Positions 1,370-30,258 of a stretch of 64,000 bases of DNA are shown piece by piece; the stretch's first letter is position 1; each line of letters starts with the position of its first letter. The translations under genes were made by a program, and so were the position numbers. This DNA is from Treponemataceae bacterium (GTDB lineage: Bacteria > Spirochaetota > Spirochaetia > Treponematales > Rectinemataceae). The notes beneath the pieces were generated by a model. That model made no database searches, had not been told where the DNA came from, and was given only the letters and a program-made list of their open reading frames with translations. The stretch covers positions 1,248,001 to 1,312,000 of the forward strand of contig CAXXHO010000005.1 in NCBI GenBank assembly GCA_963667725.2. Direction: 5' to 3'.

Positions 1370-3523
1370 TTAGGGCATCACAAAATAGAAGTAATCGGCG
1401 TCTCCATGATAGAAACCGTAATCGGTGCCGACCTCGACTAGTTTGGCCGTCGCCAGGGTGTCATTGTCTTCGAATTCATCGTCGAGACCAGCCCCGCGGC
1501 CATTCGTCGTGTCAACTGAATACATCCCTATGAACCCCAGATTGAGGCCGTACTCTCCAGTCGCCCCATCGTACTGCGTGATCCCCACTTTATAGGTTTT
1601 GCCGCTTTCAAGACCTGTAACGCTAATCGTGTCTAGGTAACTATAATCGTAGCTATTCACGAGCACATTATCCGCGTCGTCGTAGAGCGAGATCACGGTG
1701 TCGGCCAAGGTCTCCTCATTCGGATCCTCGGCGAGGTTCGGAACCGTCTGGATAAGCAGCGGCGCGGCTTCATTGAACTCAAGAGTGATCCCTTTGTCGG
1801 TGCTGTTGTCCACGGTGAAGGGTTGCTCGGCCATGGTCCCGAGATAGTTCGTTCTGGCGGTGTAAGTGCCCGGCTTGAGCAGCTTGAATTCCGCGGCTCC
1901 CTCTGAAGCGTTTGTTATTCCGAGACAGACGTACACACCGTCGCTGTCGTAGAGGTAGACGGATTGGCCTACGACCGCGTCGGGATAGCCAGTTATACCA
2001 GATCCGTACTGGGCATTGGTGTTATTCACATAGACGGAGACGGTCTTCGTGCTATAGGTTGCTCCAAGGTTAGGTATAATCCCGCCATTGAGAATCTGCG
2101 CTGCGGCCTTTACGTTGACCAAGCCATATCCGGTATCCTCATCCCAACCCGAAGCGCCGATATCGGTGGCCGTCGATTCGATGATGCTGCGGATCTGATC
2201 AGGCTTGAGCGTCGGGTTGAAGGTTAGCAGGTAGGCTACCGTGCCGGTCACGAAAGGAGCGGCCATCGAAGTGCCGGACATATCCAGGTACGTATCGCTC
2301 GTTCCATTGCCGGTTGAGTAGATGTTGTAGCCTGGCGCGGAGACCGAGATGAAATTTCCGCTGGTAGAGAACGATACCTTGGTGCCATCGGCTTTTGTGG
2401 CGCCGATCGCCAGCACGCCCGTATAAGCGGCCGGGTACTGCGGGGCGTTGTAGCCGCTGTTGCCCATCGAAGCGACCACCATAATATCTTCGTCCAGCGC
2501 CTGGTTGATCATGTCCAGCTCGAAATAGCCGGCATAGGAACTTCCAAGCGACATGTTGACGGGAATGGTTTGCGTAACGCTGTTGGTCTGTTTCCAGGAA
2601 ATGAGGTCCGCGAGACCGCCGTAGACCGCCCAGTCGGAACCTGAGCCGCTGGCAGCCGAGTCAGAGAAGCACTTGTATGAGATAAGCTTCACATTTTTCC
2701 ATGCGACGCCAGCCACGCCCTTGCCGTTGTTGCCTAGGGCCGCGATAGTGCCCGCGGTGTGGGTGCCATGCCCCTCCTCATCCCAGTCTTCATTCTCGGG
2801 CACGTCCACGAGCGCTCCGCCGTTCCCTACGAAAGCGAAGGTGTTGCCTCCATCGGAAGAGGCAAAAGCGCTCTTCGCGTACTCGATTATCTGGTCGCCA
2901 TTGCCGTCGATAAAGTCCTCGTGAATCCGGTTAATGCCCGTATCGATGTCGGCGACATAGACCGTGTTGGCGCCGACGTCATAAGCTTGATAGGCTTCGA
3001 TAGCCTTAGTGGTCTCAAAGTGGCCGAAGCGTCCCCATGTCTCTGGATCGTTGAAGAAGGCGGCGATGGCGGCCGCGTCGCGGCTCGTCGCCTTGTCGAT
3101 AGCAGCCTCCGATGAGCTTTCATCGTCCGGCAATTTGGAGACGAGTTCGTGTTGGGCGTAGACTACCCCGGCGGTGTGCCGGAGGCGGGCGACAAGCTTT
3201 ACCGTTTCGCTCTTTTTATACAGCCTATAGTATTCCGAGCCGTTGAGGCTGAAGTGGCCAGAGACAGCAGCGCCGTAACGCGTGAAACGGTCGGCGTCGA
3301 AGCCCGAGGCTACCTTGACGATAACAAAGTCTGCGTTCACCTCACCCGCGGCGGCGGCTATCGTCAGTTCCGCCTCGTCGGATGGTTCGAACATGACATA
3401 GGGAGTCATGGACCGCGCGGCGGCTGACGTCGAGCCCGAGATCGCGAACAGGCCGCAGCCCGTTAAGACGCTGGCTGCCAATATCGCCGCGAATGTCATT
3501 ATAATAGTAGGTTTCTTGTTCAT
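1370..3523 (-). CDS. S8 (subtilisin-family) serine protease lipoprotein, dentilisin PrtP/fervidolysin-like
   Basis: Catalytic triad motifs DIDTG, HGTHTAG and GTSMAAP; lipobox LTGC; GAGGAG SD before ATG 3523. Confidence 0.9.
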   Translation of the reverse strand: MNKKPTIIMTFAAILAASVLTGCGLFAISGSTSAAARSMTPYVMFEPSDEAELTIAAAAGEVNADFVIVKVASGFDADRFTRYGAAVSGHFSLNGSEYYRLYKKSETVKLVARLRHTAGVVYAQHELVSKLPDDESSSEAAIDKATSRDAAAIAAFFNDPETWGRFGHFETTKAIEAYQAYDVGANTVYVADIDTGINRIHEDFIDGNGDQIIEYAKSAFASSDGGNTFAFVGNGGALVDVPENEDWDEEGHGTHTAGTIAALGNNGKGVAGVAWKNVKLISYKCFSDSAASGSGSDWAVYGGLADLISWKQTNSVTQTIPVNMSLGSSYAGYFELDMINQALDEDIMVVASMGNSGYNAPQYPAAYTGVLAIGATKADGTKVSFSTSGNFISVSAPGYNIYSTGNGTSDTYLDMSGTSMAAPFVTGTVAYLLTFNPTLKPDQIRSIIESTATDIGASGWDEDTGYGLVNVKAAAQILNGGIIPNLGATYSTKTVSVYVNNTNAQYGSGITGYPDAVVGQSVYLYDSDGVYVCLGITNASEGAAEFKLLKPGTYTARTNYLGTMAEQPFTVDNSTDKGITLEFNEAAPLLIQTVPNLAEDPNEETLADTVISLYDDADNVLVNSYDYSYLDTISVTGLESGKTYKVGITQYDGATGEYGLNLGFIGMYSVDTTNGRGAGLDDEFEDNDTLATAKLVEVGTDYGFYHGDADYFYFVMP

Positions 3524-22329: not shown

Positions 22330-24432
22330 ATGCTGAACCGATTCGCCGTCCTGATCTGCGCCCTGGCCTTCTGCCTGTTGGGCGCATCCGCCCAGAACGT
22401 TGACGCGGCATTTCCCGCTGACGATACCTTCAGGGTCATAGCCGACTCGATCTCCATCGGCAGGGAAGAATTTTCCGCCCGTCTCGACGAGATCCGCGCC
22501 GAAGGACGCGAGCCTCTCGGCCTCGTCCTCGCGGGTGGATCGGCGCGGGCTTACGCTCATATCGGCGTCATCCAGGTGCTTGAAGATGCCGGCATCAGGC
22601 CTGACTTCATCGTCGCCAACTCTATGGGCGCCGTGGTCGGCATGCTTTACGCCGCCGGAGTATCCCCTGGCACGATCGCCCAAATCGTAGGAGCCGTTCC
22701 CCCCGAATTCTATTTCAACCTCGTTCTCCCCACGAAAGGCGGCATAATCAACGCCGATCCCTTTGTCGGCGCCGTAAAGGAAATGGTGGGAGATCTGGAT
22801 CTCTCCGATACTCCGATACCTATCATCGTGACGGGCGAAGACCTGAGGACCAGGCGGCTTGTGGAGCTGTCAGCGGGAGAATTTTCCAAAGCCATGACGA
22901 CAACCTTCGCCATGCCGGCGATTTTCGAACCGGTTCCCTTCGGGGAATTCCTCCTCGTCGACGGCGGATCGACCAACTTGGTGCCGGTCGAGATAGCCGC
23001 GAAGTATTCCTCTCTTCTTATCGTTTCCACCGCCTTCTACAACAAGAGCATGAACTACGGCAATCTTCTGTCCGTGCTCAGCAGGACCTTCGATATCGGG
23101 AAAACGAGATCGGGCATCGAGGCGCTGCTCGCGGTCTCGCCCATCGTCATCAGAAATGATGTCGAAAATATTTCTTACATGCAGTTTTCCAGCCCAGCGG
23201 CCATCATCGAGCGGGGAAGGGAAAGCGCCTTGGCTTCCATCGACGAAATACTCGGCGTACTGCCCGCAACGTCCAAAAATAGGCGGATGCCGCCCGAGCT
23301 GATCGAAGCCAGGGCAAGGTATGACCTCTCAATTCCGCGTACCCTCGCCCGGCTGAGGCGGGGGGCCTTGCCCGACGTTGTTCCTTCGGTGCGATACAAA
23401 CTCAGATACAAGCTTTTTGATATGTTTGAGCGTTCGGCGATGGAGCTGGACAGTCAAATGTACGGCGGGCTGGCGCTGTCGGCGGCGGCCGGCATGGTCA
23501 GAGCTTCGGTTTCCTCGATAATGGGGCTGTCGGGAGACCCCGGGCGGCAGTGGGCGCTTACGATGGGCATGCGGGCCAATCCCCTCGATACCTTTCTCAC
23601 CGAGGCCGAGTTGAGACTTTGGGGCGATTTCAGTTCACTTCCCGCGTTTTTTCTCGAGCCCGACAGCCTCGAATTCCTGGCCGATCTTTCCTGGTCCTCG
23701 AAGGGCGAGGACCTCGTCCTCCGGCCCTCTCTGAGCGCCTCCCTCGATTACGCCCTTGACTCGGGGGCTCTCGGCTGGGAAACAAGGGCCGAAGTGGCTC
23801 TCGACGCGGGACTCGGCGACAGGCCTCTCCTCCAGGGAACCTGGGCGGGGTTTGTGTCGGCAAGAGCGGGCGCCTTTGCCGACACGCTGGCCGAGCCGGC
23901 GGGCTCGCCACGCTATGGTCCCGAAATGACGCTGAAGACGGGCATTGCCTATCTTGGCGGCACCAATTTGGGCGGCGCCGCTTCTGGTAGCGCCAATTCT
24001 GGCGCCGCCAGTCCTGGCGGCGCCGCCTTGAGGGGAAGGGTGACGGGGCGGTTCGATATGTCCGGCAGGGGGCTCTCGCTCGAGCGGGGCGAAGCCTATC
24101 GGGGAAACGCCCTAGCGGGCGCGGCGCCCATCGTCATCGCCGCTAACATGGAACTCGTCTGGCTGGCGAAATCCCTCGAGTTCGACGCGGCCGAGCTATT
24201 CCTCGTCAAGAACATGGAATTGGGTCCATATTTCGACGCCGTCTGGCTTGCGGGCGGCGGCTCCGGTTCAACCCTGAAGCCTGATGCCTTCAGCCTCGGG
24301 CTCAGCTACGGCACTACCCTGAGTTTCGCCGGCTTGACGCCCATCGATCTGTCGCTTTTCCTGGGCTTGGACAATACGGGATATCCGGTTTTCGGCGTCA
24401 GGGCGGGAAGGCTTTTCCCCGCCGTCAAGTGA
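22330..24432 (+). CDS. Exported patatin-like phospholipase with a C-terminal beta-rich domain
   Basis: Signal peptide; LAGGSARAYAHIG, ANSMG, VDGG; C-terminus amphipathic and strand-like. Confidence 0.85.
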   Translation: MLNRFAVLICALAFCLLGASAQNVDAAFPADDTFRVIADSISIGREEFSARLDEIRAEGREPLGLVLAGGSARAYAHIGVIQVLEDAGIRPDFIVANSMGAVVGMLYAAGVSPGTIAQIVGAVPPEFYFNLVLPTKGGIINADPFVGAVKEMVGDLDLSDTPIPIIVTGEDLRTRRLVELSAGEFSKAMTTTFAMPAIFEPVPFGEFLLVDGGSTNLVPVEIAAKYSSLLIVSTAFYNKSMNYGNLLSVLSRTFDIGKTRSGIEALLAVSPIVIRNDVENISYMQFSSPAAIIERGRESALASIDEILGVLPATSKNRRMPPELIEARARYDLSIPRTLARLRRGALPDVVPSVRYKLRYKLFDMFERSAMELDSQMYGGLALSAAAGMVRASVSSIMGLSGDPGRQWALTMGMRANPLDTFLTEAELRLWGDFSSLPAFFLEPDSLEFLADLSWSSKGEDLVLRPSLSASLDYALDSGALGWETRAEVALDAGLGDRPLLQGTWAGFVSARAGAFADTLAEPAGSPRYGPEMTLKTGIAYLGGTNLGGAASGSANSGAASPGGAALRGRVTGRFDMSGRGLSLERGEAYRGNALAGAAPIVIAANMELVWLAKSLEFDAAELFLVKNMELGPYFDAVWLAGGGSGSTLKPDAFSLGLSYGTTLSFAGLTPIDLSLFLGLDNTGYPVFGVRAGRLFPAVK
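23956..24030 (+). repeat. Degenerate 15-bp tandem repeat (x5) within the patatin gene
   Basis: GGCGGCACCAATTTG GGCGGCGCCGCTTCT GGTAGCGCCAATTCT GGCGCCGCCAGTCCT GGCGGCGCCGCCTTG. Confidence 0.65.
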
Positions 24433-26194
24433 TATTCTCGTCTTCGCCGTAGGCCGCGTCGTTCTGCGTCAGGGGATTCTTGAAGCGCCAGAGCAGAAGG
24501 GCGATAAAGACCAGGTTGATGACGCTGGCCGCCGCGAAAAGGTTCCATTTCGGATTGCCCGAGGCCACCGACCCCACATAGCTGTGAAGCTTCACCCCAA
24601 TGGTGTAAAGCCTGTCGTCGGTGAGAAAAACGAGGGGAACGAGGAAGCCGTTCCAGGCGGAGATGAAGGCCGTCATCATCGCGGCGGCCAGGGCCGGGGC
24701 GCTCAAGGGAGCGATGATCTTCAGCATATAGGCGAGGGGCTTCATGCCCTCGAGCGCGGCTTCCTCCTCATAGCTCGGAGGCAGGCGATCCAGGAAGGCC
24801 TTCAGCGTAAAGAGTGAAAAGGGCAGGGCGTGGAAGATATACACCGTGACGAGCGGGACATAGCCGCCCAGCAAGCCCATAAGCCTGAAGAGAATGAAGA
24901 GCGGAATGAGGGAATGGACGCCGCCCGTCATTCCTAGCGCCTGCAGGAAGGCGAAGGCCTTCGCCGAGCGCCTGGCCGTCGTCCGCGACAGGGCAAGGGC
25001 CGCCGGCAAGGTGAAGATCGGTAACAAGAGGGCTGTGGTCGCCGCTACCAGGAAGGTGTTGAAAAAGTATCGCAGTATTCCCTCTTCACGCAGAATGGTG
25101 GCGTAGGGACGAAGCGAGATGAAACGCGGAAGAAGCCCGTCTATATAGACTGCCGACAGATCCGAGAACGAAAGCCACAGGACAACGTAGATTACGAGAA
25201 CGGCGGAAGCGACGGCGAAAATTCGCGCCGTCCAGCAGGCCGCTTTCCAGGCGAAGGCCGCCGCTTTGCCGCCGATGTTCGGCCGTACCATCCGCTCTTT
25301 CCCTTCCGGCCGCTTTCTGAGGCGAAACCACAGCCCAACCAGCAATATGACGAGCATTCCCACCGCGACGGCGTATGCCGAAGGTATGCCGTAGTCATTT
25401 TCGTTCCTAAAGGCGTCATAGAGAAAAATTTCGAGCGTGGTCGTCGCCCCGACAATATTTTTTTCGGTGATGCCGCCGATAAAGGGCGGTCCTCCGGCCG
25501 TCATCAGGAAGGGCACCTGGAATTCCTTGAACGACCTCACGAAATCGAGAGCCCACATGACGATGAGCGTTGTGCGGGCTTGCGGCGCCCTTATCCATCG
25601 CGCGATCGTCCAGGAATCGGCCCCGTCCATACTGGCGGCTTCTGTCATGCCGCGGTTCACGGCGCGGAGCGACGCGTAGAGGGCAAACACGACAAGGGGA
25701 ATGCTCAGCCATACGTCGACGGCAAGGGCGGCGACAAAACCGGCCGCTGGATCGGTGAGAAGATTCAGCTCTCTCCCCAGCATGACCGAAAGAATCGACT
25801 TTCCGCCGCTGCCGTGGATGATCATCCGCCAGATGGGCACCGAGATGAAGGATGGCACTCCCCAGGGCACGAGAATGGCCGCGAAAACGATCTTGAAAGA
25901 CTTTCCCGCGTCCAGGAGGACGGAAGCCAGGATGAATCCGATGAGAACGGAGAGGCTGGCCGAGAGGAGGGCCCATCCCAGCGTTATGCCCAGGGAAAGA
26001 ACGAATGCCCTGTCCTCGACGAGGGCTCTGAAATTTTCGAGACCGGCCCAGGCGGCCTGGCCGTAGCTGTCGTGGTAGAGGGAACTGACCGCGGCGGTAA
26101 AGAAGGGTAGTATGCCCGCGGCCAGAACGAGAAAGGCGAGAGGAAGGATGGCCAGTTTCGCCGCCCTGGATCCGCCGAGGATGGACGCCTTCAT
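24425..26194 (-). CDS. Fused two-domain ABC permease (MalF-like + MalG-like)
   Basis: GLENFRAL, PWGVP, EAASMDGA (EAA loop 1); FFNTFLVA, EEEAALEG (EAA loop 2), FISAWN. Confidence 0.88.
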   Translation of the reverse strand: MKASILGGSRAAKLAILPLAFLVLAAGILPFFTAAVSSLYHDSYGQAAWAGLENFRALVEDRAFVLSLGITLGWALLSASLSVLIGFILASVLLDAGKSFKIVFAAILVPWGVPSFISVPIWRMIIHGSGGKSILSVMLGRELNLLTDPAAGFVAALAVDVWLSIPLVVFALYASLRAVNRGMTEAASMDGADSWTIARWIRAPQARTTLIVMWALDFVRSFKEFQVPFLMTAGGPPFIGGITEKNIVGATTTLEIFLYDAFRNENDYGIPSAYAVAVGMLVILLVGLWFRLRKRPEGKERMVRPNIGGKAAAFAWKAACWTARIFAVASAVLVIYVVLWLSFSDLSAVYIDGLLPRFISLRPYATILREEGILRYFFNTFLVAATTALLLPIFTLPAALALSRTTARRSAKAFAFLQALGMTGGVHSLIPLFILFRLMGLLGGYVPLVTVYIFHALPFSLFTLKAFLDRLPPSYEEEAALEGMKPLAYMLKIIAPLSAPALAAAMMTAFISAWNGFLVPLVFLTDDRLYTIGVKLHSYVGSVASGNPKWNLFAAASVINLVFIALLLWRFKNPLTQNDAAYGEDENIT

Positions 26195-26201
26195 TCCTTC
26201 C

Positions 26202-27629
26202 CTAGAAAACGAGATTGATAGACTGGATCTGCTTTACGTTCTTGATCCCTTCGGGCAACCTGGCGATGTTCTTGTCCCAGACGAGGACGAGGGGGAATTC
26301 GCTGGGATCGAGGCCAGCCCCATCCTTGTACATGGCGAGTATGACTTCGTCGTTGGCGTCCAGTTCGCGCGAATCGAGGGTGATCTTGTAGCCGTCGACG
26401 GCGGTTACCTCGACTTTGTAGCCGGCCTTGGCCGCCGCGCTGTCATAAGCATGGATGCTCGTGTCCTGCTTGTGCGGCTGGTAAGCGGGGTCGTCGGCGT
26501 AGCCCAGCAGAAGGTGGAGGGGGAAGCCGGTGTAGCTGCCGCTTATTCCCTTGCGCTCGAAAACGACTTCCTTCTTGTGGCAGCTCACGCAGGACTGCAC
26601 CGTGGCGCGATCCATCGTTCCGTTCATTTTCCCCCCGTAGGAGACGGCGAAATCCTTGAAGTCCTTCTGTTTCACGATGATGCGCTTGATCATCTTGACC
26701 GAGGTGTGGCCGTCGATGTTGGGATCGTTGGGACCGATTTTCACCGTCCTTATGTAGCCCGGATCCTTGGGGAGCCAGTCGCCGTCCATCCTGAAGGCCA
26801 GTATCCAGGTGCCGTCCGCCTCGTCGAGCACTTGCTTGCCGGAATAGGTCATCTCATAGCCGTCGGTGGCCGCGAAGGTTATGGAATCGTCAGCGGAAAG
26901 ACTCATGAAACGGGCCAGGATAGCCCTGAGGCCCACCCCGCCATAGACATTGGAGTACTTTGTCCCGGCGCTGGTCGTGAAGCTTCCCTTGTTTTCCATA
27001 TATGCCTGATCTTTTTCCAGGTCGGCGAGGGTGTAGGAGGCTTTCACTCCGTTTATATCCAGCTCGAGCGCGAAGGAGGCGGCTTCCGAAACCGCCTTGG
27101 ACGCTGCGAGGCTCGTGGTTATGGAGGCGATCTGCTTGACCCAAAGGCCCTTGGCCGTGTCGCCGACGACCATGGGTCTGTCGAGGGGCTTGCCGGCTTC
27201 GGTATCGGCGAGGATCAGCGCGTCCTGGGCGACATCCTTCGTGGAGAAGGTGGCGGAAAAACCGTCGGCCGCCGAGAGGGTGACTTCATAGCCCTTGGCC
27301 CAGAGTCCGGCGTCGAAGGCATAGGGATGGGAGGAGTCGGAACCGTCGATCATGGCGATAGCGAGGCGGAGGGGAATGCCTGAATAGGTTGTCGCCACGC
27401 CTTTTTTATCCACCGTTTTCTGGACATAATCCTTGCCCGCGGCCTTTATCTTCTGGTAATAGGACTGGGACAGGCTGTCCTTCCTCGCGCCCGCCAGTTC
27501 GATGCTCCAGCCCGTCTCCGCCGCCGAGGCGGCCGATGTCGAGTCCGCCGCTTTCCGCGATACGCATCCGGCGAGAACGAACGCGATGGCGACCGTGATG
27601 GCGAGAATGGTCCTCATTCGTCTAGGCAT
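26202..27629 (-). CDS. Lipoprotein with three tandem repeats resembling the molybdopterin-dependent oxidoreductase (sulfite-oxidase-like) domain
   Basis: Lipobox LAGC; each repeat has YxG(I/V/F)xL...AxDG(F/Y)...ILA...G..L...VKxIxxI; AAGGAG SD. Confidence 0.7.
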   Translation of the reverse strand: MPRRMRTILAITVAIAFVLAGCVSRKAADSTSAASAAETGWSIELAGARKDSLSQSYYQKIKAAGKDYVQKTVDKKGVATTYSGIPLRLAIAMIDGSDSSHPYAFDAGLWAKGYEVTLSAADGFSATFSTKDVAQDALILADTEAGKPLDRPMVVGDTAKGLWVKQIASITTSLAASKAVSEAASFALELDINGVKASYTLADLEKDQAYMENKGSFTTSAGTKYSNVYGGVGLRAILARFMSLSADDSITFAATDGYEMTYSGKQVLDEADGTWILAFRMDGDWLPKDPGYIRTVKIGPNDPNIDGHTSVKMIKRIIVKQKDFKDFAVSYGGKMNGTMDRATVQSCVSCHKKEVVFERKGISGSYTGFPLHLLLGYADDPAYQPHKQDTSIHAYDSAAAKAGYKVEVTAVDGYKITLDSRELDANDEVILAMYKDGAGLDPSEFPLVLVWDKNIARLPEGIKNVKQIQSINLVF

Positions 27630-27656
27630 GGTGTTGCTCCTTTCGCATATTCATGA

Positions 27657-29189
27657 TTACGGCTTCGAGCCGCCGCTTATGGTTCCCAGGTTGGCGTCGA
27701 TGAGACGGCGCGCTTCCGCGAGGGCCGCGTCCGGCTTCATGCTGCCCGCGAGTATGAATCGAAGAATTTTCCACATAGTGTTTTTATAGGTGCTATAGCC
27801 TGAGCTTGGGGGTATGACGGCGCCTATCTCCGCGCTTCTTGCCAAGATGGCGTGATAGGGGCCGTCGCCTTCCGTTACCTCCCAAGCGTCTGAATTCGCC
27901 GGGAGTTTGGAGAGGGCGGTCGAAAAGCGCTGCTGAACCCCGATGCCGGACAGGTGCTCGAGGAGCCTTCGCGCGGTGACCGGGGATTGGGTGGAGCGCG
28001 TCATCGCGAAGCCTTTGAAATCGAGGAGGGGCGCCATGGGCTTGCCCGTGGACGAAACCACCGGATAGGGCGCGACGCCGAAGTCCAGGCCTATCCGTTC
28101 GAACTCGGGGATGGAATAGGACCCGCTCAGGATCATGGCGATTTTGCCCGAAGCGAAACGCGCCACCATGGCGTCGCGCTCAAGGGGCTCCAGGTAGCCT
28201 CGGTCGATCATCGAGAGAATCCAGGATATGGCCTGTCTGGTTCCACGATCGTCGGGACGGACCCCGCCGTCGGCATCGGCGATGGAAGGTTTTCCGAAGC
28301 CCATGGCTATGGGTAAAAGCCAATACGCAGAATAGACATTCCAGGAAATCGGCGTTCCGCCGCTCCGGCTTATCCGCGCGGCCATGGCTTCCAGATCGTC
28401 GGTCGTCCAGGTCAGGGCGGGCGGAACGGGGACTTGCTTTCTGTCGTAGAAAACCAGCTGCGCATCGAAATAGAAGGGAATCGCCCAACGTCGGCTTTCG
28501 GCGCTGAAGGCTGTCGCCCCATTCTCCACGATATGAGAGACGTCGATTCGATCCAGGGGCTGGAGGGTCTGCGCCGCCACGAGGTCAGGAACGTTGTCCG
28601 ATTGGATCATGAGGAGATCGGGCGTGCGCCCGCCGCCGCGCTGGACGGCCAGAAGCTTGGACCTCGTATCCGGTATGTCCACCGCTCTGACTTTCGCGCC
28701 GGAGAGCGTCGCCCAACGTTGGATTTCCGCCTTGAGTTCGGGGACGCCCTCCCAGGAGAGCCAGATTTCCAGTTCCCGCTCGCTGGCCCGGTCTCCGCTG
28801 ATGCTCACGGAACTGATGGAGGCCACCCTGGCATCCGGCGCGAGCAGGTCCCATCCTCCGGAGGACGATTCGACGATATAGAATCCGGAGAGTCTGTCCG
28901 CGAGGTTGTCTCCTATCCATATTTTTGCCCCGGCCGAGCCGGCGCACTCGATCCTCCAGGCTTCCACGAGGGGGGGAAGCAATTCGGAGATGGCGAGGCC
29001 GCGTTCCATGGAGTTCTTCGAGGGGATGGAATATGAAAGCGCGCGTAGCGCGGCGTCTGAGGGTATGGTTTTTGAGCTGCCGTTAAGGCGCAGATCGAAC
29101 GCCCAGGCAGAGGCGTGAAGCGCGAAGGCGAGGCCTAGGGAGAGAACAACCGTCCGGAAACCAGGTCCCGGCGGGTTTGAGCGAGTCAT
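27657..29189 (-). CDS. Family-1 (MalE-like) extracellular solute-binding protein with an extra N-terminal domain of about 110 aa
   Basis: Signal peptide; PDLLMI, LQPLD, WAIPFYFDAQLVFYD, FASGKIAMILSGSY, DFGVAPYP. Confidence 0.85.
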   Translation of the reverse strand: MTRSNPPGPGFRTVVLSLGLAFALHASAWAFDLRLNGSSKTIPSDAALRALSYSIPSKNSMERGLAISELLPPLVEAWRIECAGSAGAKIWIGDNLADRLSGFYIVESSSGGWDLLAPDARVASISSVSISGDRASERELEIWLSWEGVPELKAEIQRWATLSGAKVRAVDIPDTRSKLLAVQRGGGRTPDLLMIQSDNVPDLVAAQTLQPLDRIDVSHIVENGATAFSAESRRWAIPFYFDAQLVFYDRKQVPVPPALTWTTDDLEAMAARISRSGGTPISWNVYSAYWLLPIAMGFGKPSIADADGGVRPDDRGTRQAISWILSMIDRGYLEPLERDAMVARFASGKIAMILSGSYSIPEFERIGLDFGVAPYPVVSSTGKPMAPLLDFKGFAMTRSTQSPVTARRLLEHLSGIGVQQRFSTALSKLPANSDAWEVTEGDGPYHAILARSAEIGAVIPPSSGYSTYKNTMWKILRFILAGSMKPDAALAEARRLIDANLGTISGGSKP

Positions 29190-29317
29190 TATTCCCCCTT
29201 TTCAAGCATGGAAGGCTGAACCGTTTCCGGCGCAACCCGATGGCTTTTAGTCCATGGACTTCCGAGGCTCATTGTCATGATGCCGCGTATCTTTAGGAGC
29301 TAAGGCTCGAAGGAATT
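29190..29317 (-). ncRNA. Moco RNA motif-like leader (molybdenum/tungsten cofactor riboswitch candidate)
   Basis: Minus strand AUUCCUUCGAGC..CCUAA..CAUGG.CUAAAAGC-CAUC-GGGUUG.CCG-GAAA-CGG.UCAGCCUUCC..UUGAAAAGGGGGAAU-A-AUG matches the remembered Moco motif architecture (P1 over SD, CCUAA in P2, GAAA-capped P4, GCCUYCC-P5); judged by eye. Confidence 0.75.
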
Positions 29318-29326
29318 CTATGGCTG

Positions 29327-29355
29327 ATTCTATGGCGCCCATTCGCAGGCGTCAA
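29327..29355 (-). promoter_or_regulatory. Sigma70 promoter driving the Moco-like leader
   Basis: TTGACG-N17-TAGAAT, placing the TSS just 5' of P1. Confidence 0.75.
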
Positions 29356-29397
29356 GCGGATGAACCTGTCTTGACGGACAGACCCGAGCGCGGGGCG

Positions 29398-29428
29398 AAA
29401 AAAAAAGGCGCCCCGGATGGGCGCCTTT
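29398..29428 (-). terminator. Intrinsic terminator of the upstream outer-membrane protein gene
   Basis: AAAGGCGCCC/GGGCGCCTTT stem with a T9 tract on the minus strand. Confidence 0.85.
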
Positions 29429-29461
29429 CGTATCCGATCCGAATCCGATCGGGATCCGACG

Positions 29462-29962
29462 CTACAGTTTCAGGAGGACGCCGATATAGGAGGCCTCGAG
29501 GCCGGTTTCGGCGTTGATGGCGAAGTTCTCCGAAAGGAAATAGCTCGTGCCGCCGATCGTGTTGAAGCCGACGCTGGGAAGGATCGAAAGACCAAGACCA
29601 AAGTACGAATCGAAGTTGCCGATCCAGGCGAGTTCGCTGGGCAGGTCGAGGGCGCCCCAGTTGAAGTGGAGGGTGCCTACCGCGCCTACCGCGACGTCCA
29701 GGGTGCTGCCGATATAGAGTCCGGCGCGGCCGGCTACGCCATAGGTGAAGGGAAGTTTTTCGGCGATCGTGAACTTGCCGATGGCGTATTCAACGCCGCC
29801 GCCGACCGAAAGGCCGTACCAATAGCCAAAACCGATGCCGACATTCGCGTTTATAGAACCGGGATTAATGAGCATGCCATTTTTGGAATAGTTAGTGGTT
29901 TCCGCGGACGCGAAACCAACGACGACGCAGAGAAGCGCGACAAGCACCGTGAACTTCTTCAT
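29462..29962 (-). CDS. Small exported protein, probable outer-membrane beta-barrel
   Basis: Signal peptide ending ASA-E; Gly/aromatic amphipathic strands; AAGGAG SD. Confidence 0.7.
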   Translation of the reverse strand: MKKFTVLVALLCVVVGFASAETTNYSKNGMLINPGSINANVGIGFGYWYGLSVGGGVEYAIGKFTIAEKLPFTYGVAGRAGLYIGSTLDVAVGAVGTLHFNWGALDLPSELAWIGNFDSYFGLGLSILPSVGFNTIGGTSYFLSENFAINAETGLEASYIGVLLKL

Positions 29963-30258
29963 TTCCCTCTCCTTTTGCGTGAGACGATCAGGTTGATGCT
30001 TCGTCCGGAATGTATCGAAGAATCATACGATTCAAGCCGGGCAGGATAATATCCATTCATAATTGTATAGATGATTCCCGAAATTTGCAAATAATAATTA
30101 ACTTGATTCATATGGTTTTTACCCAATCGCCGTGCCGCCGAACTGTCGCTATGTATAAAAATACCAATAGCATGCGGCTTTTATGTCTTGACATTGCGAC
30201 GCCCCCTGTTGTACCGTCCCGTAAAGGATATTCACATGAGTTATATTAAAGATTCCTT

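Follow-up and report, generated by a model that had tools for sequence, protein, structure and literature searches.

In this study, we analysed an operon of a Treponemataceae bacterium (assembly GCA_963667725.2, contig CAXXHO010000005.1) that lies on the minus strand of a 64,000-nucleotide (nt) stretch, hereafter the window. The operon consists of an aptamer of the molybdenum cofactor (Moco)/tungsten cofactor (Wco) riboswitch class followed by genes for a substrate-binding protein, a lipoprotein and a fused permease of the ATP-binding cassette (ABC) importer type. It is probably a salvage importer for the Wco or Moco pterin cofactor, which would probably be taken up in its metal-loaded form. 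The parts of the operon are listed below, with their positions in the window.

24425..26194, minus strand: fused MalF-like and MalG-like ABC importer permease, 589 residues (two BPD_transp_1 stretches)
26202..27629, minus strand: lipoprotein, 475 residues, lipobox LAGC (Oxidored_molyb, E 2e-12)
27657..29189, minus strand: substrate-binding protein, 510 residues (SBP_bac_8, E 8e-19; SBP_bac_1)
29179..29324, minus strand: Moco/Wco riboswitch aptamer (RF01055), P3-lacking subclass (covariance-model match)
29327..29355, minus strand: sigma-70-like promoter candidate TTGACG-N17-TAGAAT (10 of 12 matches)
29403..29429, minus strand: intrinsic-terminator-like hairpin and T run (11-pair stem with 7 G-C pairs, then the T run)

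All parts are on the minus strand, and the three genes are tightly packed, with intergenic gaps of 27 and 7 nt. A preliminary description, made from the letters of the window, had proposed an insulated unit of a terminator, a promoter, a structured leader and three tightly spaced genes, and each of these parts was found in its place on this strand. It had also taken the leader for a Moco-motif RNA and the lipoprotein for a triple repeat with a molybdopterin fold; the covariance-model search and the structure model reported below bear out both assignments.

Riboswitch leader and conservation of the operon

The Rfam model RF01055 matched the window at 29324-29179 over model positions 1-135 (cmscan), scoring 54.1 bits where the gathering score is 36 (E 3.7e-10); there was no other Rfam match in the 64 kb. 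Two forms of the motif, with and without P3, are distinguished by Regulski et al. (2008; PMC2408646), who place the P3-lacking form almost only in organisms and operons linked to the tungsten cofactor. The P3 columns are deleted in the cmscan alignment of the window RNA. Moreover, none of the 34 aligned RNAs (the window RNA and 33 located upstream of homologous operons) has an insert in the place of P3. The same paper describes P3-less RNAs upstream of 'sulphite oxidase'-like genes in Syntrophomonas wolfei, which it leaves unexplained.

The start codon of the first gene, at 29189, is located within the 3' end of the aptamer. In the window RNA, the 5' strand of P1 occupies 29314-29309, and its 3' strand, at 29198-29193, is the Shine-Dalgarno sequence GGGGGA. 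The 3' strand of P1 is GGAAG, GGAGG or a close variant in all 34 RNAs, with a start codon 0-6 nt downstream, and P1 thus contains the ribosome-binding site. Pairing at the five inner positions of P1 is intact in 33-34 of the 34 RNAs (87.7% of cells paired), and one pair is U-A in 26 RNAs and C-G in the other 8. The covariation score of P1 was 0.247 compared with 0.153 in shuffles, none of the 500 shuffles scored as high, and the score fell when the partner was shifted by 1-3 columns. Because the ribosome-binding site is located within P1, a translational OFF switch is the simplest reading: the architecture suggests that bound cofactor stabilises P1 and thereby hides the ribosome-binding site.

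A 9-nt word, CCATAGAAT, occurs twice in this region, with 3 nt between the copies (window 29315-29335, minus strand). The first copy provides the -10-like hexamer of the promoter candidate, and the second stands at the 5' end of the aptamer match.

An even class sample of 301 Spirochaetia genomes contained 50 carriers, a carrier being a genome with a lipoprotein match at E <= 1e-20. We fetched 40 loci from the 49 carriers other than the window's genome; nine with partial or weak matches were left out. The binding protein, lipoprotein and permease are in the same order on one strand in 40 of the 40 loci, as far as the contigs reach, and RF01055 is present above its gathering score, directly upstream and on the same strand, in 32. 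Seven of the eight loci lacking an RNA match are cut by a contig end; only that of G044 has sequence there yet no match. The preliminary description had named the neighbourhoods of homologues as a place to look for the same trio and the Moco RNA, and their joint recurrence is far beyond chance.

Spirochaete genomes and metagenomes contain many homologues of the lipoprotein and of the binding protein, annotated as 'molybdopterin-dependent oxidoreductase' and 'extracellular solute-binding protein', respectively. A close-relative search with a single protein gave 7 close loci, and the nearest named contigs belong to Rectinemataceae and Treponemataceae metagenome-assembled genomes. The genome G019 (locus L090, C59:13000-23000) has the RNA, the binding protein, the fused permease and a two-domain lipoprotein homologue of 288 residues (99.3% in hhalign). 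This variant, encoded by the open reading frame (ORF) 2348-3214 (plus strand) of L090, has no Pfam match and indicates that the number of pterin-binding-type domains varies.

The importer and cofactor biosynthesis genes

The organism's own family is represented by 7 genomes, all of which have aldehyde:ferredoxin oxidoreductase (AOR). The lipoprotein is present and MoaC absent in four of the seven, and MoaC is present and the lipoprotein absent in two. One genome has no MoaC and carries the RNA and a binding protein 48% identical to that of the window, directly after which the contig ends. In G304, one of the two MoaC-positive members, the same riboswitch class stands before genes for a TupA-like binding protein, a permease, an ATPase, MoeA, MoaA and MoaB, and MoaC follows about 4 kb downstream on the same strand and contig. 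In the other, the distance from the riboswitch to MoaC, which lies downstream of it on the same strand, is 4 kb. One and the same sensor thus governs tungstate uptake and cofactor synthesis in some members and the importer in the others. This pattern, in which the importer replaces the biosynthetic and tungstate-uptake operon within one family, is the sharpest evidence in our analysis.

The window's genome is a draft of 4.22 Mb in 8 contigs (97% complete, 6% contamination) and contains six AOR-family (AFOR_N) genes with intact open frames. In this genome, searches for MoaC, the C-terminal domain of MoaA, MoaE, MoeA_N and the MogA/MoaB domain (MoCF_biosynth) all gave no match, and the same searches were positive in 11-13 of 14 control genomes. 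The preliminary description had proposed to test for co-occurrence with genomes that have Mo/W enzymes and lack moaAC, and six AOR genes with no detectable moa or moe gene agree with such a link. No ModA, TupA or WtpA was recognised in the window's genome: the top 6 of 15 SBP_bac_11 matches are PhnS/ThiB-like, and the single PBP_like_2 match is PstS. The modA search gave only a frameshifted N-terminal fragment of 79 positions (model 1-79) at the very edge of a contig (C7:4-239, minus strand). Split over two frames, this modA-like fragment reflects either the decay of a molybdate-binding gene or a contig end of poor quality.

Across the 301 genomes, MoaC and MoeA were both found in 117, MoaC only in 6 and MoeA only in 4. 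AOR was present in 48 of the 50 carriers compared with 91 of the 251 non-carriers, and the genomes are distributed as follows.

AOR present, neither MoaC nor MoeA: 50 genomes, 23 carriers
AOR present, MoaC and MoeA both: 83 genomes, 23 carriers
AOR present, one of MoaC and MoeA: 6 genomes, 2 carriers
AOR absent: 162 genomes, 2 carriers

Carriers are thus linked to AOR, in line with the co-occurrence that the preliminary description had suggested, and some of them lack the biosynthetic genes. The 23 carriers without MoeA and MoaC make a metal-loaded cofactor a more likely cargo than a precursor or an oxyanion. MogA/MoaB, too, is missing in about half of the carriers, for which neither a precursor nor the oxyanion would be useful.

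Two further RNAs of this class are located elsewhere in the window's genome. A second Moco/Wco riboswitch, with 52.6 bits (C5:974706-974866, minus strand; L017 8707-8867), precedes ferredoxin-like and AOR genes. Its ribosome-binding site, GGGAGG, lies 20-30 nt past the aptamer and is complementary to a conserved CCUCCC of the aptamer, and by its sequence this riboswitch might be an ON switch, opposite to that of the importer. The ORFs of 905 and 207 residues directly downstream of the riboswitch-controlled AOR (L017 2322-5039 and 5136-5759, both minus strand) have no Pfam match. The third Moco-type RNA (C3:227131-227269, minus strand; L018 7132-7270) scores 32 bits, which is below the gathering score, and is located about 100 nt upstream of an NAD-type aldehyde dehydrogenase gene that probably starts at L018 7028. 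This weak match is supported by two genomes of the same genus, in which RNAs of 36-39 bits precede aldehyde dehydrogenases 94-96% identical to this one. By analogy with B12-independent isozymes under B12 riboswitches, the aldehyde dehydrogenase looks like a tungsten-independent back-up for AOR that would be repressed when the cofactor is available.

Lipoprotein, binding protein and permease

The structure model of the lipoprotein, based on a 27-sequence alignment, has a mean predicted local distance difference test (pLDDT) score of 85 and contains three beta-rich domains after a disordered linker.

Lipoprotein residues ~40-182, 183-332 and 333-475: three tandem PruR/SUOX-like pterin-binding-type domains (structure model and profiles)

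The profile of domain 2 matches those of domain 1 (92.5% probability) and domain 3 (95.9%). Oxidored_molyb covers residues 209-326 with 47.5 bits against a cut-off of 24. Foldseek matched the lipoprotein with sulfite oxidases (chicken best, E 7e-8), SorA, SoxC, nitrate reductase and YedY, and with the PruR structures 7kom, 7kp2, 7kos and 7rkb at template modelling (TM) scores of 0.64-0.72, normalised to targets of 134-147 residues. A sequence search of solved structures with the whole lipoprotein gave nothing significant. When the domain 2 profile was compared with solved structures, PruR 7kom was best at a borderline E of 0.0097, and SorA was next (E 0.18). The lipoprotein domains resemble PruR, a non-catalytic pterin binder, more closely than they resemble the sulfite oxidase enzymes.

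In domain 2, D-G-Y is invariant and is aligned with an N-D-Y stretch of Vibrio vulnificus PruR (7kom), and D-G-Y or D-G-F is present in all three domains. In Agrobacterium PruR, N102 and Y104 contact the pterin, and both residues are conserved in PruR homologues (PMC11194511); we infer that the N-D-Y stretch of V. vulnificus PruR corresponds to them. In the alignment of domain 2 with PruR, which is borderline, the Tyr position is kept and the PruR Trp aligns to Thr. Cys is absent from the invariant or near-invariant columns of domains 1 and 2, and the region before the G-G-V motif, the place of the Mo-ligating Cys hairpin, is short, as in PruR. The Cys-His pair of domain 3 (350-351) is at least 90% conserved in the close set and is not conserved across the wider set.

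Two other candidate sites in the lipoprotein were discarded. CVSCH (residues 347-351) was rejected as a CxxCH site for heme c because its first Cys is Gly in many homologues. Ser220, in 'TTSAG', was dropped as a replacement for the Mo-ligating Cys because SorA and PruR alignments place this motif after the Cys hairpin.

Periplasmic SUOX-family molybdoenzymes have a twin-arginine signal and are exported with bound cofactor. In the lipoprotein alignment, a twin-arginine is present in 3 of the 27 N-termini; many have a lipobox, and others are Sec-type. Since the N-termini are of lipoprotein or Sec type and twin-arginine is rare, the lipoprotein probably leaves the cell unfolded and without cofactor, which would fit a binder and not an enzyme. 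Whether or not a twin-arginine translocation (Tat) system is present was set aside as a test, being non-discriminating because the window's genome has TatC; only the lack of a conserved twin-arginine counts.

The binding protein carries a signal peptide; residues ~32-134 form an additional beta domain at the N-terminus, and residues ~140-506 a core of MalE fold. Its model has a pLDDT of 91, and Foldseek gave TM scores of 0.80-0.85, normalised to the target, to MalE/maltodextrin-binding structures. In Pfam, it matches SBP_bac_8 and SBP_bac_1 only, and not PBP_like_2 or SBP_bac_11, the families of the ModABC, TupABC and WtpABC types. The NCBIfam equivalogs MalE, MalF and MalG gave 61.7, 75.4 and 68.2 bits against cut-offs of 291, 392 and 261, respectively, and the GlcU/T models were likewise far below their cut-offs for the permease. 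The proteins thus belong to that superfamily and are not those transporters. The preliminary description had held that an automatic 'sugar ABC transporter' call is probably wrong. These scores are consistent with that view, as is the neighbourhood, since no glycosidase and no LacI/ROK-type or other sugar regulator is found among the 21 neighbouring ORFs in the window.

The extra N-terminal beta domain of the binding protein (~100 residues; window 28788-29096, minus strand) is conserved in the family. Hints of SUOX-fold kinship for this domain are weak and not significant; its residues 75-78 and 131-137 fall within the predicted interface described below. As kin of the lipoprotein, it is a lead only: profile comparison gave just 2.3% probability (E 0.02). 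The same holds for an Atlas feature search, in which the best score, 0.78, was to a cluster with 19% Oxidored_molyb members.

Complex prediction for the binding protein and the lipoprotein gave an interaction prediction score from aligned errors (ipSAE) of 0.74 (runs 0.77, 0.69 and 0.74), compared with 0.00 for the best of three controls. The ipSAE mark is reached by 116 of 157 solved complexes and by 2 of 215 mismatched pairs. At least 83% of contacts are common to the runs, with a partner pLDDT of at least 84. In the predicted interface, domain 1 of the lipoprotein, including residues 122-129 with the D-G-F motif, contacts residues 205-214 and 398-404 of the binding protein. The model thus supports docking of the lipoprotein on the binding protein. 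To our knowledge, there is no solved complex of a SUOX/PruR-type lipoprotein with a MalE-type binding protein.

At the boundary of the operon, the hairpin at 29403..29429 closes the upstream minus-strand unit and keeps the operon insulated from it. A plus-strand ORF (window 29417-30049, 210 residues) and a minus-strand ORF (29462-29962, 166 residues) overlap in this region, both lacking a Pfam match, and the terminator at 29429-29403 suits the minus-strand ORF. TTGACG-N17-TAGAAT is the sole promoter-like match in 24200-29700, where 1.4 would be expected by chance. The promoter named in the preliminary description is accordingly present at 29355-29327, and, being no rarer than chance, it is a candidate backed by its position and not by the match itself. 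The neighbours in the window are unrelated: patatin-like, CNNM/CorC, aminotransferase and PdxS/PdxT genes, a methionine-type ABC system and a major facilitator superfamily protein. Among sequencing runs, one labelled as metatranscriptomic cDNA has contigs over 25 of 30 operon bins, and three others gave single short pieces of the operon. These runs say nothing reliable on expression, given guessed RNA status, contig data and whole-genome amplification.

Proposed pathway, alternative explanations and related systems

We propose a salvage pathway based on the operon and the gene patterns. A finished-cofactor riboswitch before a binding-protein-dependent importer is a classical salvage signature. 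The lipoprotein would be exported via the Sec/lipoprotein route without cofactor, and extracellular cofactor would be captured on its three PruR-like pterin-binding domains. Domain 1 would dock on the MalE-fold binding protein and pass on the ligand, and the binding protein would deliver it to the fused MalF/G-type permease, which would presumably draw its energy from an ATPase encoded elsewhere. Insertion of the cofactor into the six AOR-family enzymes would follow in the cytoplasm. When plentiful, the cofactor would bind the P3-less riboswitch, P1 would close over the ribosome-binding site, and translation of the operon would stop.

A broader proposal, which we regard as an even bet, is that the finished, metal-loaded tungsten cofactor is a traded 'vitamin' of anoxic communities, for which about one-sixth of the sampled Spirochaetia would have a dedicated importer. 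The triple-domain lipoprotein, located at the surface or in the periplasm, would capture and protect the cofactor and hand it over by docking, and about half of the carriers would be obligate auxotrophs without moa/moe genes and oxyanion transporters. The riboswitch regulon would balance uptake, AOR and the tungsten-independent aldehyde dehydrogenase.

Several points weigh against salvage of a metal-loaded cofactor. All of the evidence is computational: the operon parts and how they are conserved, the architecture of the RNA, the protein folds and the gene presence or absence pattern were computed directly, and the ligand, its hand-over and the direction of regulation were inferred. Free Moco and Wco are chemically labile, and the operon has no ATPase gene. 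The genome is a draft (8 contigs, 6% contamination), and the modA-like fragment at the edge of contig C7 implies that unassembled sequence exists. The ligand of the P3-less Moco RNA has never been demonstrated, and no test of the ligand proposal made in PMC2408646 was found in the literature searched. The authors of PMC11194511 call the PruR pocket too short for Moco, and the lipoprotein domains, which share the short hairpin of PruR, may accommodate no more than the pterin end, or else a smaller pterin.

The distribution of the operon also contains such points. The system is not confined to auxotrophs, as 23 of the 50 carriers also have MoaC and MoeA, and 27 AOR-positive genomes without MoaC or MoeA show no lipoprotein at E <= 1e-20. 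Eighteen of these 27 belong to the family f16 (e.g., G012, G158, G200, G225 and G269) and have single weak AFOR_N matches (E 1e-13 to 1e-52); no Moco RNA was found in the five f16 genomes searched. This family was set apart only after the data had been seen. Among the other nine genomes, five were examined: G019 is the carrier of the two-domain variant, and four have no Moco RNA, the latter also telling against salvage. Furthermore, related genomes are not independent samples, and the family counts are given without statistics.

The preliminary description had proposed that the operon imports or scavenges Moco/Wco, molybdopterin or a precursor. Import is supported by the RNA, the conservation and the AOR link, and a precursor is less likely than the metal-loaded form. 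The main rival explanation is nevertheless of this kind: a precursor or breakdown product, such as cyclic pyranopterin monophosphate (cPMP), metal-free molybdopterin or an oxidised pterin, would be imported and completed by unrecognisable enzymes. In free form, precursors such as cPMP are less labile than Moco, and the 23 carriers with MoaC and MoeA could use them. The hairpin of the PruR-like domains is short, and Moco is described as too large for the pocket of PruR (PMC11194511). We nonetheless consider this explanation unlikely in view of the 23 carriers without MoaC and MoeA. The window's genome also lacks detectable MoaE and MogA/MoaB, and no tungstate or molybdate binding protein was recognised in it; with these absences, no known route from a precursor to the metal-loaded cofactor remains.

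Uptake of an unrelated substrate, such as a sugar or an aldehyde-pathway substrate, that is merely co-regulated, with the lipoprotein serving as a periplasmic sensor or redox protein, seems very improbable to us. The binding protein and permease are indeed most similar to the MalEFG family, and the riboswitch class also controls non-transport genes (AOR and aldehyde dehydrogenase) in the window's genome. However, the MalE/F/G scores fall far short of their cut-offs, the surroundings in the window contain neither a glycosidase nor a sugar regulator, and the operon complements the moa/tup operon within the family. The pterin-binding-type lipoprotein is moreover fixed in the operon at 40 of 40 loci, and its docking on the binding protein is predicted. 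Uptake of tungstate or molybdate by a system of a new type, with the lipoprotein and the large binding protein handling the oxyanion, would be in keeping with the frequent position of Moco RNAs before Mo/W oxyanion transporters (PMC2408646) and with the same riboswitch class before the TupA-like transporter of G304. We give this the least credence of all, since the binding protein has the fold and family of MalE (SBP_bac_8/1) rather than PBP_like_2 or SBP_bac_11, the lipoprotein has a pterin-binding fold, and an oxyanion would be useless to the 23 carriers without MoeA.

The preliminary description knew of no characterised system with such an architecture, and we likewise found no bacterial importer for Moco, Wco or molybdopterin in the literature searched, most subscription journals being outside that search. 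De novo synthesis is described as the rule, with Caenorhabditis elegans, which takes up Moco, as the only known exception (PMC9026282). How pterins cross membranes is stated to be unknown in a 2026 pterin review (PMC13259868), and a survey of riboswitch regulons (PMC3766115), in its accessible portion, lists uptake classes with none for Moco. A riboswitch combined with an ABC salvage importer is known as a kind; what is new lies in the proposed cargo, in the accessory protein and in the auxotrophy that is implied. If the salvage reading is true, Moco/Wco joins the exchanged vitamins, contrary to the de novo rule of textbooks and reviews, and tungsten-enzyme organisms without the entire biosynthetic pathway are explained. 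It would also correct thousands of 'sugar ABC transporter' and 'molybdopterin-dependent oxidoreductase' annotations and would place the P3-less riboswitch subclass in a clear physiological setting. In addition, it would supply binders and stabilisers of a notoriously labile cofactor, which would be useful in practice for delivering it, for instance in Moco deficiency research.

Riboswitch-controlled vitamin salvage is known from BtuFCD for cobalamin, with its accessory capture lipoproteins, and from ThiBPQ for thiamine. As would be the case here, a finished-cofactor riboswitch represses the uptake system, and uptake replaces biosynthesis in auxotrophs. The operon differs from them in its cargo class, its MalE-type binding protein and its accessory protein of SUOX/PruR fold. 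With MalEFGK2 (CUT1), it shares the core fold of the binding protein and two MalF/G-type membrane modules, whereas the sub-cut-off scores, the extra N-terminal domain, the fused permease, the lack of an ATPase gene and the absence of a sugar-use context set it apart. SUOX-family molybdoenzymes (sulfite oxidase, YedY/MsrP and SorA) have the Oxidored_molyb domain in common with the lipoprotein; their conserved Mo-ligating Cys on a long beta-hairpin and, in the periplasmic members, their twin-arginine signal are not conserved here.

PruR from Agrobacterium, Vibrio and Klebsiella is similar to the lipoprotein domains in its small SUOX-type fold of ~135-150 residues, its secretion, the lack of a Mo-ligating Cys and, by the borderline alignment, the Tyr of the pterin site, and it is a ligand binder rather than a catalyst (PMC11194511). 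The lipoprotein differs in having three tandem domains without the PW motif, and the sequence similarity is borderline (E 0.0097). It has no DcpA partner; the operon in which it sits is headed by a Moco/Wco riboswitch and encodes the binding protein and permease of an ABC importer. The leader resembles the P3-lacking 'Tuco' subclass of the Moco RNA motif in its full-length match above the gathering score, the absence of P3, the ribosome-binding site in the 3' part of the aptamer and the association with tungsten-enzyme genomes. Here, it controls a MalEFG-type importer and a pterin-binding-type lipoprotein, not biosynthesis, oxyanion transport or enzymes. The dietary uptake of Moco by C. elegans is comparable in that finished Moco is acquired from other organisms, but it occurs in an animal by an unknown mechanism thought to involve protein-bound Moco (PMC9026282). 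A counterpart in the same bacterial family, supplying the same enzymes, is the TupABC and moe/moa operon of G304, which is under the same riboswitch class but serves oxyanion uptake and cofactor synthesis, and which is present where the importer operon is absent.

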